The notes below the pieces were generated by a model. It ran no database searches. It was not told where the DNA came from and saw only the letters and a program-made list of their open reading frames with translations. The position numbers and the translations under genes were made by a program. Shown one piece after another: positions 6,049 to 11,483 of a stretch of DNA of 37,093 bases (position 1 is its first letter; the number at the start of each line of letters is the position of its first letter). Origin of the DNA: a virus (taxonomy: Duplodnaviria > Heunggongvirae > Uroviricota > Caudoviricetes); IMG/VR virus record IMGVR_UViG_2740892211_000019; one strand, written 5' to 3'.

Positions 6049-8871
6049 ATGACGGCAGAGTACATCAGGGACTGGCAACAACCGCGCCACGCAGTGGGAC
6101 GTGAAGGAACGGGGATCCCCGTTCCTGAATCCGCGCTTTCCTCCTGGCTGGATGCCTACCGGGCAGAGAACGAGCGCCGCCAGGAAATGGCTGATGCGGC
6201 GTTCTCCGCCACGCCGCTGGGCAACCTGATTAATAAAAGCCTGGATGCACAGGAAAAACAGGACAAAACCATCACACTGGCAGGAGACGCCAGAAAACAG
6301 GTACGCGGTGCGGTGGATGAAGCCATGGCCTCGCTGCGCCTGCTGCCGTCCTATCTGCGCGATCCGCTTATTCGCCACCTCTCCTTCCTGCGCAAAAAAC
6401 AGGAAGCCGATCGCCGGAAAGGCAAAAAGAGCTGGCAGGCTGAACGCTACGCGCGCGGAACCCTGCGCAAAATATTCGAACGTCTGGACCGCACCGACCA
6501 CCGCTGGCTGACACCGGGTTATCGCTCCCTTGCCGGACGCGAACGCCTGGATGATTTGCTTTACCTGCCGCAGCTCAACAAGCACCAGATACAGACGCTG
6601 GCCACCATGACGGCGGCGATGTTCAGCAGCACCTTCGAAAAACTCTGCGATGGCTTTGGCGCGACTGATGGCGAGCTGACCATGGATGTAACGCTGAAGG
6701 CGTATCAGATGCTGGCCCGCATGGCGTTACACCTGCACGCCATGCCTCCGCATTATGACGCACTGACAACAGACAAAGACCGGAGGAACGAACCGGACAC
6801 GGAGCTGCTGCCGGGCGCAATCCTTCGCCTGACCTGTGCGGAATGGTGGAAACGCAAACTGTGGCTGTTACGTTGCGAGTGGCGGGAAGAACAACTCCGC
6901 GCCGCCTGTCTGGTTTCCAGAAAAACATCGCCCTATCTGAGCCAGGACGCGTTAAGCGAGTTTCGCGCACAGCGCGAGAAAACACGCGATTTCCTGAAAA
7001 GTTTCATGCTGGAAAACGAAGACGGGTTCACGATTGATCTCGAGACGGTGTATTACGCGGGAGTAAGTAACCCGGTTCACCGTAAGGCAGAAATGATGGC
7101 CACCATGAAGGGGCTGGAACTTCTGGCCGAAGCCCGTGGCGACAAAGCGGTGTTTCTGACTGTCACCTGCCCGTCAAAATACCACGCCACAACAGAGAAC
7201 GGTCATCCGAATCCCAAATGGAACGGGGCCACCATGCGCGACTCCAGCGATTACCTGGTTAACACGTTTTTTGCGGCGGTCCGCAAGAAACTGAACCGCG
7301 ACGGCCTGCGCTGGTATGGCATCCGCACGGTGGAGCCTCACCATGACGGCACCGTGCACTGGCATATGATGGTCTTTGCTCATCCGGAAGAAATCGACAC
7401 CATTGTGTCCCACACCCGCGATATTGCCATTCAGGAAGATCGTCACGAGCTGGGTGATGATATTACCCCACGCTTTAAGGCGGAGTACGTCGACGGCTCA
7501 AAAGGCACACCGACCAGCTACATCGCCACCTACATCGGGAAAAACCTGGACAGCCGTGCCGTGGATGGCATCGACCCGAAAACGGGCAAGCCACGCGTTG
7601 ACCACGAAACCGGAAAATCAATGGCCGAGAGCGTGGAACGCGCCATCGGCTGGGCGCGCCTTCACCGGGTCCGCCAGTTCCAGTTCTTTGGTATCCCCTC
7701 CCGTCAGGTGTGGCGTGAACTGCGCCGCCTTGCCAGCCAGATGGCTCGCAACCCGGAAGGACCGCAACGGCTGAAGGATGACGCAATGGACGCGGTTCTT
7801 GCTGCCGCTGATGCCGGATGTTTTGCCACCTACATAGAGAAACAGGGCGGCGTACTTGTTCCACGCAAGGACTACCTGATTCGCACCGCCTACGACCTCG
7901 CCGATGAGCTGAACGATTACGGTGAACAGAGCGTACAGATTTACGGGATCTGGTCACCGCTCATCGGGGAGTCTTCCCGCGTATGCACGCATCCGGACAA
8001 CTGGAAGCTGGTAAGACGCAAACCGGAAGCGGAAGACAGCGCCCGCGAAAATGGTTTTGACCTTCAGGGCGGCCCTGCCGCACCTTGGACTCGTGGCAAT
8101 AACTGTCCCCGTGTACAGGAAACGGACAACAACGGGACAGAACAGCCGGAAGAACGGCCAGCACCGTGGCCGCAGCTTCCTGACGGCGTTGACGTGAACG
8201 AATGGATGCGCTCACTGAAACGGCACGAACGCCGGGCGCTGATGCGTTCGCTGCGTGACAAACAGGCAAAAAACAGCAGTGATGAAATGCAGAGCTGGAC
8301 ACAGAGCCGCAAACAGCAGCGGCCTTTGCCTGATAACCACGAATTACTCGCTAAAGAATGGCGGGAATCTGCCGAATCTCTCGGCCTGCATATCGGTGAA
8401 CAGCAGATGCAGCACCTGTTACGGGGCGGCAGCCTGTACGTTGACGGCAGCATCATTGCACCGCAGGGATTTGAAATTGTACGCAAACCGGATACCCGCC
8501 CGGACAGCCGAATCACGCAGCTCTGGCAGCGCCTGAGCCGTAATCACGGCGTAAGCAGCACGGAGATCCGCCATAACCCGGTCGCCAGCTATCTGGAACA
8601 GCTGGGGGCATCAGACCCCGAAGCCGCCGCACGTCTGGCATCCACACTTCAGCAGGACCAGAACACCATGAACCCCCCCGTTACCGTGCTTTCTGACATG
8701 CTGCGCGCCATCCGCGACGCAGAGCACGCACAGAGAATCAGTGAAACCACTGAACGTGCCCGCCGCAAAGCAGACCTGCTGCGGGGTGGCCTGACCAGTG
8801 GAAACAAAAAACAGACAGAAACGGGATTCACAAATCCCGTAAATGAGCAAAAAACGCGCCGCGATATATGA
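6049..8871 (+). CDS. A: Replication initiation endonuclease (P2 gpA-like rolling-circle initiator), 940 aa
   Basis: ORF track. Contains the HUH-type metal-binding motif (HHDGTVHWHMMVF) and a tyrosine-bearing block (TSYIATYIGKN) typical of P2 A-family initiators; position matches P2 synteny. Longer than my recollection of P2 gpA. Confidence 0.9.
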   Translation: MTAEYIRDWQQPRHAVGREGTGIPVPESALSSWLDAYRAENERRQEMADAAFSATPLGNLINKSLDAQEKQDKTITLAGDARKQVRGAVDEAMASLRLLPSYLRDPLIRHLSFLRKKQEADRRKGKKSWQAERYARGTLRKIFERLDRTDHRWLTPGYRSLAGRERLDDLLYLPQLNKHQIQTLATMTAAMFSSTFEKLCDGFGATDGELTMDVTLKAYQMLARMALHLHAMPPHYDALTTDKDRRNEPDTELLPGAILRLTCAEWWKRKLWLLRCEWREEQLRAACLVSRKTSPYLSQDALSEFRAQREKTRDFLKSFMLENEDGFTIDLETVYYAGVSNPVHRKAEMMATMKGLELLAEARGDKAVFLTVTCPSKYHATTENGHPNPKWNGATMRDSSDYLVNTFFAAVRKKLNRDGLRWYGIRTVEPHHDGTVHWHMMVFAHPEEIDTIVSHTRDIAIQEDRHELGDDITPRFKAEYVDGSKGTPTSYIATYIGKNLDSRAVDGIDPKTGKPRVDHETGKSMAESVERAIGWARLHRVRQFQFFGIPSRQVWRELRRLASQMARNPEGPQRLKDDAMDAVLAAADAGCFATYIEKQGGVLVPRKDYLIRTAYDLADELNDYGEQSVQIYGIWSPLIGESSRVCTHPDNWKLVRRKPEAEDSARENGFDLQGGPAAPWTRGNNCPRVQETDNNGTEQPEERPAPWPQLPDGVDVNEWMRSLKRHERRALMRSLRDKQAKNSSDEMQSWTQSRKQQRPLPDNHELLAKEWRESAESLGLHIGEQQMQHLLRGGSLYVDGSIIAPQGFEIVRKPDTRPDSRITQLWQRLSRNHGVSSTEIRHNPVASYLEQLGASDPEAAARLASTLQQDQNTMNPPVTVLSDMLRAIRDAEHAQRISETTERARRKADLLRGGLTSGNKKQTETGFTNPVNEQKTRRDI

Positions 8872-8918
8872 AGCGCACACAAAACAGGCAAAAACGGGAT
8901 TTCAGAATCCCGTAAACG
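8818..8918. repeat. Two copies of a ~28-bp palindromic unit (AAACGGGATT-N5-AATCCCGTAAA) about 73 bp apart, directly upstream of parM
   Basis: Copy 1 at 8818..8848 lies inside the last codons of gpA; copy 2 at 8891..8918 overlaps a possible -35/-10 for parM. Read directly from the sequence. Confidence 0.5.
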
Positions 8919-8947
8919 ATTAATTAATCAACATAAGGAAAAGCGAC

Positions 8948-9907
8948 ATGAAAATTTGTATCGACGACGGCTCCACCAACATCAAGCTGGCATGGACTGA
9001 GAATGGCGAACGCCGCAACGCCATCAGCCCGAACAGCTTCAAGTCGGAATGGTCTGCGCCGTTCGGTGGCATGCAGCCCGCGAACTACATGCTTGATGGC
9101 GTGCGCTATGGTTTTGATCCGGTCAGCGATCGCTTTGTCCAGACGACCGACACGCAATACCAGTACAGCGATGTGAATGTAATCGCCATTCATCACGCGC
9201 TGGTCAAATCAGGCATCACGCCACAGGAGGTGGATGTGGTTGTCACCCTGCCACTGAGCGAGTATTTCGACACAAACGCACAGCCGGACATGGCCAACAT
9301 CAACCGCAAAAAAGCGAACGTTATGCGCCCGGTGGAGTACCAGAACGGCGAAGCATTCACTATCCGTAACGTGCGGGTTATGCCTGAATCCATTCCGGCT
9401 GGCTTTAAAGCACTGGCTGACATGAGTCCGTTTGAATCCCTGCTGATTGTGGATTTAGGCGGAACCACGCTGGATGTGGCAAAGGTTCAGGGGCAACTGG
9501 CAGGTATCAGCCAGGTGTTTTGCGATCCACACGTAGGCGTCTCCCTGATGGCCGGTGCCGTGCTGTCGGTGATGGCCGCTAACGGTATGCGTACCAGTCA
9601 CCACATCGCCAATACCATTATCGAACATCGCCATGATGAAGCCTGGTTGCGCCAACACATCCACAATGACGCGCATTACGCCAGCCTGATGGCGGTTATT
9701 CGTGAAAAGGAAGAAACACTGAAACAACGCGTGATCCGCGCGCTGGCGGGTTTTTCGGGTTACGGGCGGGTGATGGTTGTCGGTGGCGGGGCGGAGATTG
9801 TGGCACCCGCTATCCGCGAAGCCTGCGGAGTTAATGCGACTTTCATCGCGGACGGGGTGCCACAGTTTGCTCTGGTTAATGGGCTGTACGCAATGGACAA
9901 GGAGTAA
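8948..9907 (+). CDS. parM: ParM/StbA-family actin-like ATPase (type II plasmid partition NTPase)
   Basis: Translation carries the ParM signature blocks as I recall them from plasmid R1 StbA/ParM: CIDDGSTNIKLAW, YSDVNVIAIHHAL, VMPESIPAGF, LLIVDLGGTTLDVAKV, VMVVGGGAE. RBS AAGGAAAAG before the ATG at 8948. Confidence 0.85.
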   Translation: MKICIDDGSTNIKLAWTENGERRNAISPNSFKSEWSAPFGGMQPANYMLDGVRYGFDPVSDRFVQTTDTQYQYSDVNVIAIHHALVKSGITPQEVDVVVTLPLSEYFDTNAQPDMANINRKKANVMRPVEYQNGEAFTIRNVRVMPESIPAGFKALADMSPFESLLIVDLGGTTLDVAKVQGQLAGISQVFCDPHVGVSLMAGAVLSVMAANGMRTSHHIANTIIEHRHDEAWLRQHIHNDAHYASLMAVIREKEETLKQRVIRALAGFSGYGRVMVVGGGAEIVAPAIREACGVNATFIADGVPQFALVNGLYAMDKE

Positions 9908-9911
9908 ACCA

Positions 9912-10226
9912 ATGACGACACCAACCAGACGGATAAGTTTCTATCTGAAGCCAGTCGCCGTCAATAGTGAACGGGAGGCGTGTAATTACCTCGACAGCCT
10001 GCCAGCCTCTGAACGCAGCCGCGCGCAACGCGCGGCCTTTCTGGCCGGGCTGGCACTCATAAAACGCGATCCTGCATTTGCCTATTGGTTGGCCGAATGG
10101 CCGGAAGAAGGAGCTGCGCCAGCCAAGAATAATATTCAGAGTAAATATGCCAGCACACCTGCCACCGGAAGCAATCACAGCACTAGCGAGATAAGAAAGA
10201 ACATTCAGTCATTTTTCCCAGAGTGA
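9912..10226 (+). CDS. parR: ParR/StbB-like centromere-binding protein (ribbon-helix-helix)
   Basis: ATG at 9912 with AAGGAG upstream, 4 nt after the parM stop. N-terminal beta-strand-like RISFYLKPV, then LDSLPASERSRAQRAAFLAGLAL, which closely matches my recollection of the R1 ParR core. Confidence 0.7.
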   Translation: MTTPTRRISFYLKPVAVNSEREACNYLDSLPASERSRAQRAAFLAGLALIKRDPAFAYWLAEWPEEGAAPAKNNIQSKYASTPATGSNHSTSEIRKNIQSFFPE

Positions 10227-10245
10227 AAACAGGAGAGGAGCATCT

Positions 10246-10707
10246 ATGGCAACTATCCCCAAAAAATGGTTACAACGCAAAATTGCAGACCTTGAATCGT
10301 GTCGTGAAGACATCCCGTTTGGCCTTGATGAAAACGATCACAATATGTTAATCGCACTGAAAATCGCACTCACATCGCTGGAAGCAGAGGCAGTTATGTT
10401 CTGTATATCAGGACAAAATGTAGATTCAGAAGAACATGTATCAACCAGCAAAGCGGTTGTTGATGCCTGGGTTGAAGAATGGAATCAGGTTGACGGAAGT
10501 CCTGGCGAACCACTGTACAAAACTATGCCACTCTACTATCACGCTGCCTTGCCAGCGCCGGTAGTGCCGGAAGAAGCAACTCCGGAAAACGTAGAAATGC
10601 TCTCTGGCTATGTTTCCACATACAAATTAACCGATAGCGAGCGCGATATTGCTGCCGAAATATGGAACGCCTGCCGCGCCGCTATGCTTCATGGGAAAGG
10701 AGAGTGA
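10246..10707 (+). CDS. Hypothetical acidic protein (153 aa), third gene of the parMR operon
   Basis: ORF track; RBS AGGAGAGGAG before the ATG at 10246. No family recognised. Confidence 0.6.
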   Translation: MATIPKKWLQRKIADLESCREDIPFGLDENDHNMLIALKIALTSLEAEAVMFCISGQNVDSEEHVSTSKAVVDAWVEEWNQVDGSPGEPLYKTMPLYYHAALPAPVVPEEATPENVEMLSGYVSTYKLTDSERDIAAEIWNACRAAMLHGKGE

Positions 10708-10708
10708 T

Positions 10709-10972
10709 ATGGCAACTTTAACAAAAAAAGAACGGGCATGGTTGAACGAATTACAGGACGTTCTTGATCGCTGCCCATCACCGAAAAAAATTGGTTTTTA
10801 CACCATTGGCGATAAAAGCATTTACCTGTATGACCTGCGCCGCATGGATGAAATCATGGAGGCTCTTGATAATCGTTCGTCAATGGATTGGTGTGTTGCT
10901 GTCCATGATATGAATGCAGGGTTTGATGAAAAGATTTTGTTCCCCTCATCAGTTGAAAGCACAGCAGGATAA
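10709..10972 (+). CDS. Hypothetical protein (87 aa), fourth gene of the parMR operon
   Basis: ATG at 10709 (MATLTKKERAWLNELQ...) one nt after the previous stop, with GGAAAGGAGAG upstream. No family recognised. Confidence 0.55.
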   Translation: MATLTKKERAWLNELQDVLDRCPSPKKIGFYTIGDKSIYLYDLRRMDEIMEALDNRSSMDWCVAVHDMNAGFDEKILFPSSVESTAG

Positions 10973-11006: not shown

Positions 11007-11033
11007 AAAGCGCCTCAGGGGCGCTTTTTGTTT
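11007..11033 (+). terminator. Rho-independent terminator (AGCGCC-tcagg-GGCGCT followed by TTTTTGTTT)
   Basis: Hairpin plus T-tract read directly from the sequence, downstream of the four-gene operon. Confidence 0.7.
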
Positions 11034-11060: not shown

Positions 11061-11483
11061 TTTTTTGAACGACTTTTTACCCTTCCGGCCCGCATGGCGG
11101 CTGGATCCGTCAAGGATCCGTGCGTGCACAAAAAAACGCGCTTTTTCTACGCGCAGGTGACGGGGGAACAGCCCGCGTTTCAGGGGGTAAATAGCATTCC
11201 CTGAACGATGTCGCAGAGATACAACAGAATGGCTGTATTTCTCACGCTGAGCGTGAAAAAGACGTGAGGGCTTTTGATTTGATGGGGTGAAAGGTAAGGC
11301 CGTCAAAATCGCACTGAGACGGCGAGAACATGCAGTCAACGCGGTGGGATTGCGTAAGAGTCTGGCTGTCGATGATGGCAATAAGCAGGAAAGCGTCGTG
11401 AAATTATCTGATTGATACAGGAGCTGGAGAGTCGGGGCATAAATTTTTTATGCCCCGGCGAAGCAGCAGACAAGCGAAGCGCG

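Follow-up and report, generated by a model that had tools for sequence, protein, structure and literature searches.

Two dyad boxes upstream of parMR as a probable parC-like site in P88-like prophages of Escherichia coli

P88-like prophages probably carry a partition centromere built from two palindromes. Here, we analyzed a window of 37,093 nucleotides (the whole stretch of DNA under study), which is a P88-like (P2-like) prophage of E. coli, and found two boxes at the junction of gpA and parM. Sequence comparison makes it probable that the boxes, together with the A-rich DNA that flanks them, form the cis-acting parC of a type II ParMRC module that P88-like prophages carry as cargo in their gpA-portal hotspot, and the boxes themselves are most likely the DNA that ParR binds. 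ParMRC is a textbook actin-like DNA segregation machine, and to our knowledge work on its centromeres has been confined to a few plasmids, all of them with direct-repeat arrays. The features of the region are as follows.

6049..8871, + strand: gpA, replication endonuclease, 940 aa (Pfam Phage_GPA, E=2e-131); TGA stop codon at 8869-8871
8804..8846: unit 1, a direct-repeat copy comprising an A-rich leader, box 1 and AAATGA (repeat search)
8821..8840: box 1, candidate ParR site, ACGGGATT-CACA-AATCCCGT (repeat search, pattern match, and Hafnia and Plesiomonas homologues)
8841..8893: inter-box spacer of 53 bp, containing the gpA stop codon and helically phased A-tracts
8877..8919: unit 2, the second 43-nt direct-repeat copy (repeat search)
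8894..8913: box 2, candidate ParR site, ACGGGATT-TCAG-AATCCCGT, with the parM ATG 35 bp downstream
8923..8931, + strand: ATTAATCAA motif, kept in an alignment of the P88-type, Hafnia and Plesiomonas loci
8935..8940, + strand: Shine-Dalgarno-like AAGGAA before parM, read from the sequence
8948..9907, + strand: parM, actin-like partition ATPase, 319 aa (Pfam StbA_N, E=3e-82; Pfam ParM_N, which is a model of the ParM C-terminal domain, E=2e-67)
9912..10226, + strand: parR (stbB), centromere-binding adaptor, 104 aa (Pfam Plasmid_stab_B, E=9e-25)

A first-pass annotation had described two near-identical units about 73 bp apart, and a repeat search bore this out with 43-nt direct repeats at 8804-8846 and 8877-8919 that are 81% identical and spaced 73 bp from start to start. 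Each contains a 20-bp box that is an 8+4+8 palindrome, ACGGGATT-N4-AATCCCGT; the exact pattern ACGGGATTNNNNAATCCCGT matched twice, at 8821-8840 and 8894-8913, and the units read AAACGGGATTCACAAATCCCGTAAA at 8819-8843 and AAACGGGATTTCAGAATCCCGTAAA at 8892-8916. The palindromic units stand, but the degenerate loop first given for them needs a slight correction, as the third loop base is C or A (CACA, TCAG) and not a fixed A. With up to 3 mismatches allowed, the box pattern matched three times in the whole 37-kb window against 0.11 expected, a count reached in 0 of 100 dinucleotide shuffles. A relaxed pattern gave 8 hits versus about 3 expected, with a shuffle maximum of 8, and further boxes in the window beyond the two are not significant. 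R1-like additional iterons were also sought here, and just degenerate AAAC-phased matches with 4 of 10 positions mismatched were found. Moreover, A-tracts are phased at 10.4 to 10.5 bp over 8800-8925, a periodicity equaled by 1 to 4 of 2,000 shuffles.

The two genes downstream of the boxes are, by homology, bona fide members of the ParM and ParR families. ParM matched R1 ParM (PDB 1MWK) over residues 2-316 with E=8e-93, and parM is under purifying selection, its polymorphic columns numbering 8, 3 and 44 at codon positions 1, 2 and 3. parR starts 5 nt past the parM stop, and the sole solved structure that matched its product was pB171 ParR/StbB (PDB 2JD3), a weak similarity over residues 6-61 (E=0.004). 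Homology predicts a ribbon-helix-helix fold for ParR. The N-terminal beta-strand of the protein reads TRRISFYLKP, its C-terminal tip (NIxxFFPE) is conserved, and the linker is hypervariable. The locus combines an actin-like ParM, a small ParR directly downstream and a repeat-containing site immediately upstream of parM, three features of type II (ParMRC) systems.

The boxes travel with parMR rather than with gpA, which answers a question raised by the first-pass annotation, namely, whether the palindromes accompany parMR in other genomes. The boxes are missing from gpA homologues that carry different cargo (L002, L003), the homology of which ends at about 8763-8771. Conversely, in locus L001 the cassette homology begins at 8806. 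The cassette, in the order box 1, box 2, parM and parR, was found behind at least three different gpA lineages, including gpA proteins only 31% and 39% identical, and there homology starts at the left edge of unit 1, which is also the left edge of the mobile parMR cassette. As the gpA TGA lies at 8869-8871, box 1 falls within the last 17 gpA codons and the stop codon falls between the boxes, as first described, and about the last 22 gpA codons (from about 8806) are cassette-side DNA that runs through box 1. Related modules occupy the identical hotspot of P2-like prophages in Hafnia, Plesiomonas, Serratia and Enterobacter. Among 120 IMG/VR contigs with an exact box, parM lay no more than 400 nt away in 110; 5 more were gpA-parM junctions cut by the contig end, bringing the total at this junction to 115, and only 5 were unrelated occurrences. 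The sole constant neighbors of the boxes are parM and parR, and the cargo downstream of parR varies. Two roles tied to gpA were rejected. The duplication of a gpA terminator, offered earlier as a fallback, does not hold, as the coding strand has no T-tract, box 1 is inside the open reading frame and the boxes are not linked to gpA. A gpA nick site or origin was ruled out by inference, as the boxes go with parMR and are present downstream of gpA genes whose products are only 31 to 39% identical.

The geometry of the boxes is kept across genera. Hafnia (L254) and Plesiomonas (L256) prophages encode ParM proteins 62% identical to that of the P88 type, and both loci have two GGG[AT]-N8-9-[AT]CCC boxes, 73 bp apart in L254 and 72 bp apart in L256. 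The first G of each box lies at -128 and -55 from the parM ATG in Hafnia, at -131 and -59 in Plesiomonas and at -125 and -52 here, while the sequence of the inter-box spacer is unrelated between genera. GGG and CCC are invariant, and inner arm pairs are broken in Hafnia and Plesiomonas. The comparison covers three lineages; IMG/VR searches for intermediates with the Hafnia and Plesiomonas ParM proteins yielded 0 and 1 new loci, and a ParR protein search returned alleles from Escherichia, Shigella and Salmonella only.

Of 104 P88-type haplotypes, 101 share the 73-bp spacing, and a GGGA...TCC core is invariant across all 104. The arms are as variable as the flanking DNA (2 to 4% diversity among 65 haplotypes), so conservation among such close relatives is uninformative as a functional signal. 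Common natural variants also disrupt the dyad symmetry, namely, T7C in box 1 and both A1G and C18T in box 2, and we count these variants, together with arms no more conserved than their flanks, against the centromere reading. The repeat might instead be a functionless scar, a duplication left by insertion of the cassette or by recombination, as one could suppose from the identity of the units over 43 nt, from arm diversity that is not below that of the flanks in close relatives and from rare variants with just one unit (L072). A scar does not account for two boxes that persist at 72 to 73 bp where the surrounding sequence of the genera has diverged beyond recognition, nor for the fixed spacing and invariant GGGA/TCC core of the haplotypes, and we give it the lowest probability of the explanations considered here.

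Whether the boxes act as RNA was weighed against the same variation. They could be hairpins in a + strand gpA-parM transcript that influence mRNA stability or processing, or translation at the end of gpA or the start of parM, without ParR. Each box folds to an 8-bp stem of about -11 kcal/mol (z of -3.7 to -4.7 versus shuffles), cotranscription of gpA and parM is likely because no + strand terminator lies between them, and the common box 2 variants A1G and C18T would leave G-U wobbles on the + strand. The Hafnia and Plesiomonas boxes, however, retain only 3 to 6 of the 8 pairs, and the common T7C variant breaks one pair. No compensatory changes in the stems were found among the 104 haplotypes, the boxes matched no Rfam family at E<=1, and base-pair covariation was not significant (a score reached by 51 of 500 shuffles, in a low-power comparison of 6 boxes only). 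Moreover, the hairpin model does not predict the kept GGG/CCC and the 72- to 73-bp spacing. That boxes are kept while hairpin potential decays points to a double-stranded protein-binding site rather than an RNA hairpin or terminator, and we consider a hairpin function unlikely.

A terminator on the opposite strand seems more improbable than that. Both boxes score as terminator-like on the minus strand, with 8-bp stems followed by TTTTTGCC and TTCTGTCTGT, and they could keep antisense transcription out of gpA and the early operon. The T-tails, however, are a mere complement of the A-rich leaders, and no minus-strand gene or strong promoter was found to read into the boxes, the sole promoter-like hit (10444-10417) being weak. 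T-run hairpins near 11008-11030 and 11430-11465 look, from their sequence, like the terminators that delimit the flanking transcription units. In addition, the stems decay in Hafnia and Plesiomonas though the boxes persist, and there is no rationale for two minus-strand terminators at a fixed 73-bp spacing.

Whether the boxes regulate parMR is a separate matter. Box 2 was said to overlap a plausible -35/-10, but a consensus scan of the + strand across 8500-10900 found no sigma-70-like promoter, although a weak or noncanonical promoter may escape a scan of this type. The ATTAATCAA motif could belong to the 5' leader or represent a weak -10-like element, and it too fails the promoter consensus scan. 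The lack of a consensus promoter leaves the operator half of the parC model without support, and the sigma-70 promoter that is embedded in R1-type parC for autoregulation was likewise not found by the scan. The boxes possibly also serve as an operator. For the claim that the boxes are a parC-like centromere, the linkage to parMR, the kept number, spacing and distance from parM, and the invariant ParR strand argue in favor, and the scan lends no support to the promoter overlap or to autoregulation.

The protein that reads the boxes is most likely ParR. ParR alleles are 50 to 99% identical, yet TRRISFYLKP and the C-terminal tip are invariant, and the strand is invariant wherever the boxes occur. 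In the wider family, strand and site also go together, RRTIAFKL with AAACCC iterons, and RRKI[TQ]FY and RRKV/RKKV with TTCTC/ATCTC iterons. Another protein might bind the boxes instead, whether a regulator of parMR from phage or host or a factor with a role in recombination or DNA architecture. Many dimeric regulators typically have palindromic operators, and the cassette breakpoints adjoin the units. We know of no E. coli regulator site, however, that the box resembles. Because the boxes go with parMR on several phage backbones that otherwise differ, a regulator encoded by the backbone is unlikely. The constancy of parM and parR alone as neighbors, with variable cargo past parR, and the invariant ParR strand also argue against another binding protein. 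In favor of one, characterized ParR proteins all bind direct repeats (PMC9426499); we hold this explanation to be improbable, about as much so as the RNA hairpin.

The layout was first called the one expected for a partition centromere, but the repeats of plasmid relatives are 11-bp direct iterons in two clusters, not palindromes, and, judged by sequence, the dyad layout is noncanonical relative to the tandem direct repeats of plasmid centromeres. One close comparison is with R1/R100 (Dam and Gerdes 1994, as cited in PMC9426499), where parC likewise directly precedes parM, and parM in turn precedes the gene for a ribbon-helix-helix ParR. ParM of R1/R100 is about 47% identical to the prophage ParM, and the ParR N-terminal domain about 43%. 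As in the prophage, two repeat groups flank a central stretch in A-rich, helically phased DNA, and the CATAAGGA ribosome-site context of R1-type loci is similar to that of prophage parM. R1 parC, however, consists of 2 x 5 tandem 11-bp direct iterons, which are A-rich and of the AAACCC type, around a strong promoter. The prophage has two 20-bp palindromes 73 bp apart, no consensus promoter, box 1 inside the upstream open reading frame and no 2 x 5 array of tandem 10- to 11-bp direct iterons flanking a promoter, and it is chromosomally integrated. Full function of R1 requires many iterons. Two dyad boxes would make an exceptionally small centromere, and we count this, together with the direct repeats bound by all published ParR proteins, against the centromere reading.

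Other relatives share parts of the arrangement. The stretch upstream of parM always has repeat arrays in plasmid relatives and in phage D6. The StbAB system of D6, a phage-plasmid maintained as a plasmid, has a ParM 48% identical; it and the TTCTC-iteron ParMR loci of enterobacterial plasmids have repeats upstream of parM, as here, but these are 11-bp direct TCTCA/TTCTC iterons paired with the ParR strands RKKVMIYL and RRKITFYL. The pSK41 units, to which ParR binds as a dimer of dimers, are 20 bp long (summarized in PMC9426499), and this is also the length of the prophage boxes. The pB171 and pSK41 sites, however, are direct tandem repeats in one contiguous array, whereas the prophage has two separated dyad boxes.

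The mechanism that we infer extends to ParR binding, segrosome geometry, the timing of module action and any operator role. Ribbon-helix-helix ParR dimers, or dimers of dimers, would bind each 20-bp box, with the N-terminal beta-strands (TRRISFYLKP) entering the major groove at the inverted GGGA/TCCC half-sites. The boxes would lie on one face of intrinsically curved, A-tract-phased DNA, since 73 bp is about 7 helical turns. ParR complexes on both boxes would then cooperate to form a single segrosome, the C-terminal tips (NIxxFFPE) of which would capture the ends of ParM filaments.

Why an integrated phage would encode such a module is less obvious. The element was chromosomal at 1,531 of 1,533 places in complete E. 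coli genomes, so a plasmid-type partition role is not obviously needed, a point that we count against the centromere reading. Because the element is almost always integrated, the target of the module may be the circular phage genome after excision or just after injection, as SXT srpMRC and CGP3 AlpAC suggest by analogy. srpMRC is a type II module of the SXT/R391 integrative conjugative elements that acts on the excised circle (PMC4489591); like prophage parMR, it resides on a normally integrated element, although its host is a conjugative element and not a phage, and its authors report that SrpR has no recognizable similarity to ParR proteins (PMC4489591). The genes of the AlpAC/alpS system in the Corynebacterium prophage CGP3 are switched on early, and efficient replication of the phage DNA depends on them (PMC4446434), but there the adaptor gene comes first, the proteins are unrelated to the prophage ParMR, and alpS has 24 short TTAAnnG repeats rather than two palindromes. 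We speculate, more tentatively, that this could be the first dyad-box ParR centromere, two ParR tetramer sites 7 turns apart on curved DNA, and that it might serve the phage by segregating or positioning P2-like genomes that have been excised or are entering the cell, or by mediating centromere-based incompatibility against related elements, rather than by plasmid maintenance; we regard this fuller proposal as possible but doubtful. A literature search found no paper specific to a P88-type or P2-like parC, nor any published assay of replicon stabilization or incompatibility by the locus.

The site is widespread. P88-type prophages are present in 1,371 of 5,426 complete E. coli genomes, and so the site is in the chromosomes of about a quarter of sequenced strains. 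Should ParR bind the two dyad boxes, they would provide a minimal, easily mutated centromere with which to ask how few ParR sites cap a ParM filament, would show how the specificity and site geometry of ribbon-helix-helix ParR proteins evolve, and would raise the question of what use a partition system is to an integrating phage. Finally, for annotation, we note that the gpA reading frame of the P88 type ends in cassette DNA, its last 22 or so codons overlapping the candidate cis site.

The window is a P88-like (Xuanwuvirus, P2-like) prophage, and two boxes upstream of its parM gene probably constitute a parC-type centromere, the cis-acting site of a type II ParMRC partition module, albeit one of noncanonical dyad design. 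The first-pass annotation proposed paired, near-identical palindromic units ~73 bp apart, and a repeat finder together with reading of positions 8500-9300 bore this out: a 43-nt direct repeat is present in two copies that are 81% identical and start 73 bp apart. The proposed palindromes held, but the loop consensus needed a small correction, as the loops are CACA and TCAG. The relevant features are as follows.

6049-8871, gpA, P2-type replication endonuclease (940 aa; Phage_GPA, E=2e-131)
8804-8846, unit 1, first copy of the 43-nt repeat
8821-8840, box 1, 8+4+8 palindrome ACGGGATT-CACA-AATCCCGT within unit 1
8877-8919, unit 2, second copy of the repeat
8894-8913, box 2, 8+4+8 palindrome ACGGGATT-TCAG-AATCCCGT within unit 2
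8948-9907, ParM (StbA_N and ParM_N, the Pfam model of the C-terminal domain)
9912-10226, ParR (104 aa; Plasmid_stab_B), whose true start is the ATG at 9912, as a relative is also annotated in RefSeq

Box 1 lies, as claimed, inside the last gpA codons (the final 17), the two boxes bracket the gpA stop (8869-8871), and the parM ATG is 35 bp past the end of box 2. By pattern scan, the 37-kb window has exactly two copies of ACGGGATTNNNNAATCCCGT, and at ≤3 mismatches it gives 3 matches against 0.11 expected, a count reached in 0 of 100 shuffles.

The boxes belong to parMR rather than to gpA. In two E. coli prophages, a closely related gpA is followed by other cargo (a Dam methylase with an AAA ATPase in the first, hypothetical genes in the second); homology to the window breaks off at ~8771 and ~8763, and both lack the boxes. 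Conversely, the prophage L001 has a quite different gpA and an extra ORF, yet it has the unit 1-unit 2-parM-parR cassette, and its homology sets in at the left edge of unit 1 (8806). In the IMG/VR contigs L098 and L118, this cassette stands behind gpA proteins that share just 31% and 39% identity, respectively, with that of the window. Moreover, the exact box pattern matches at least 120 IMG/VR contigs, and among the 120 matches listed, 110 have a ParM N-terminus ≤400 nt downstream, another 5 show this junction truncated by the end of the contig, and the remaining 5 are unrelated and match by chance. Thus, the palindromes accompany parMR in other genomes (115 of the 120 listed), the suggested alternative of a gpA terminator duplication is rejected, and a role as gpA origin or nick site is unlikely. 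The gpA C-terminal tail (8772-8871) varies with the cargo behind it, and that of the P88 type is read-through into cassette DNA, which supplies the last ~22 codons. In the other backbone (L001, 3998-4066), this stretch is a RefSeq "DNA replication protein" pseudogene fragment. In L072 (IMG/VR contig 2874920711_000009), the P88-type gpA is cut short at about residue 762, with unrelated DNA directly against unit 2, and only one box is left upstream of parM.

Conservation is informative at a distance. In an unbiased set of close relatives picked by ParM similarity (79 loci, 65 haplotypes), the arms are about as variable as the flanks (2-4%) and the loops are the most variable positions (up to 16%), so close-range conservation says little. 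Spacing is 73 bp in 101 of 104 haplotypes, and all 104 keep the GGGA...TCC core; T7C in box 1 and A1G plus C18T in box 2 are common, and compensatory double substitutions are absent. ParM relatives at 54-62% identity came up in a protein search, and every one with a contig examined (Hafnia, Plesiomonas, Serratia, Enterobacter) belongs to a P2-like prophage, where it occupies the gpA-portal interval. The Hafnia and Plesiomonas upstream regions align to the window at only the two boxes and the ATTAATCAA motif, and both keep two GGG[AT]-N8-9-[AT]CCC boxes.

Box positions (first G relative to the parM ATG) and spacing
Window (P88 type): box 1 at -125, box 2 at -52, 73 bp
Hafnia (L254): box 1 at -128, box 2 at -55, 73 bp
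Plesiomonas (L256): box 1 at -131, box 2 at -59, 72 bp

Across these six aligned boxes, GGG and CCC are invariant while inner arm pairs are often broken (75% of cells pair overall), and the covariation score was matched by 51 of 500 shuffles. What is conserved therefore appears to be sequence and geometry on duplex DNA, and RNA hairpins are an improbable explanation. In the Serratia/Enterobacter class (ParR strand NRKISFYLKP), Enterobacter-type L258 and L264 have GGGAAC near -117/-118 and inverted GTTCCC near -57/-58, L265 shows the same arrangement by eye, and Serratia L257 has GGGAAC at -120 with the exact inverted copy absent. Thus, at a minimum, one GGGA half-site keeps its place near -120 throughout the prophage clade. 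The feature is real, tightly linked to parMR, and conserved in architecture across genera; that it is a functionless duplication scar is very improbable.

ParR is the candidate reader of the boxes. ParM matches the solved R1 ParM structure (E=8e-93) and is under purifying selection, as polymorphic columns number 8 at first, 3 at second, and 44 at third codon positions; ParR matches the pB171 ParR/StbB structure 2JD3 over residues 6-61 (E=0.004). Escherichia, Shigella, and Salmonella ParR alleles are 50-99% identical and look mosaic, with TRRISFYLKP invariant (TRR[IV]SFYL in Hafnia and Plesiomonas), a hypervariable linker, and, Hafnia and Plesiomonas included, an invariant C-terminal N-I-x-x-x-F-P tip and several invariant helix residues. 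The pattern fits a ParR that binds DNA through an N-terminal ribbon-helix-helix domain and ParM through a C-terminal peptide. In the wider family, beta-strand RRTIAFKL goes with R1-type AAACCC iterons, RRKI[TQ]FY, RRKVLIYL, and RKKVMIYL with TTCTC/ATCTC iterons, and KKIQFNLY with GAAATGT-type repeats, a correlative match suggesting that ParR recognizes the upstream repeats. That the boxes bind some other protein is unlikely, to about the same degree as hairpins. There are two main N-terminal allele types ("TPEARKSGQRV" and "PASERSRAQRA"), the polymorphic ParR adjoins a ParM conserved at 98-99%, and DNA homology to most P88-like phages ends inside parR (breakpoints near 10057-10108).

How ParR might use the boxes can be outlined. 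A-tracts over 8800-8925 are phased at 10.4-10.5 bp (power reached by 1-4 of 2000 mononucleotide shuffles), part of the signal stemming from the direct repeat itself, and the 73-bp spacing is ~7 helical turns. Curvature of this kind, with both boxes on one face, would be expected of DNA wrapped around a ParR scaffold (summarized in PMC9426499). ParR dimers of dimers would bind the inverted GGGA/TCCC half-sites of each box, two complexes on the same face would form one segrosome, and its ParR C-terminal tips would engage ParM filament ends. Plasmid relatives differ: instead of two separated palindromes, they have tandem 11-bp direct iterons grouped in two clusters that surround a clear promoter. 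All characterized ParR proteins are said to bind direct repeats (PMC9426499), and the SXT/R391 srpMRC centromere has 13-bp repeats, direct and inverted (PMC4489591).

Regulation by the boxes is another matter. The second unit had been thought to overlap a plausible parM -35/-10, but a consensus scan found no plus-strand sigma-70 promoter in 8500-10900, and the conserved ATTAATCAA (8923-8931) occupies the place expected of a -10 but is not consensus-like. Thus, the operator/autoregulation part of the idea is unsupported. No plus-strand terminator was found after gpA, so transcription of the early operon may continue into parMR. Read on the minus strand, both boxes get terminator-like scores, but these follow from the A-rich leaders and we found no minus-strand transcription unit needing them; a terminator role is quite improbable and, like each rival, less likely than the centromere. 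Farther on, hairpins GCGCCTCAGGGGCGC followed by TTTTTG (11008-11030, behind the cargo ORFs) and GGGGCATAAATTTTTTATGCCCC with a T-run (11430-11465, by the portal gene end) look terminator-like by eye and presumably flank the cos region.

In nearly every genome the phage is found integrated: of 5426 complete E. coli genomes, 1371 have the gpA-parM junction, which lies at 1531 chromosomal and 2 plasmid places. The system would therefore most plausibly act on a circle that has been excised or injected. SXT/R391 srpMRC (PMC4489591) and CGP3 AlpAC/alpS (PMC4446434) offer analogies. The circular "plasmid" record NZ_CP148288.1 (34,461 bp; cat E. coli isolate), 96% identical over gpA-parM-parR and phage genome sized, may represent a P88-like genome, excised or extrachromosomal, that the assembly captured. 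Positions 8400-10100 are 94-97% identical to phages P88, 520873, P884B11, Citrobacter phiSM, and others. ParM and partition protein are the routine annotations of the two genes; we found no published description of a cis site upstream of P88-type parMR.

The gpA-portal region is a variable cargo/defense-type locus, where related prophages carry, sometimes alongside parMR, HicAB, KAP NTPase, a DUF3800 protein, Dam methylase plus AAA ATPase, or unknown genes (L257 5450-6084, L258 5411-6757, L260 4506-5216, L002 4361-6921, L003 4143-6670). Here, two ORFs of unknown function behind parR (10246-10972; PHROG 5117/660 and PHROG 1714) share 97-99% DNA identity with parts of Stx-converting and other lambdoid phages and of ~60-kb plasmids, where they are labeled "Ea22"-like or hypothetical, which indicates, by sequence identity, mosaic exchange between P2-like and lambdoid phages. 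Finally, P88-type or R1-type enterobacterial parM loci in GTDB representatives labeled Vagococcus, Streptomyces, Clostridiales, Lachnospiraceae, Acinetobacter, and Bacillus (L009, L025, L026, L039, L046, and L052) are probably contamination or mis-binning.
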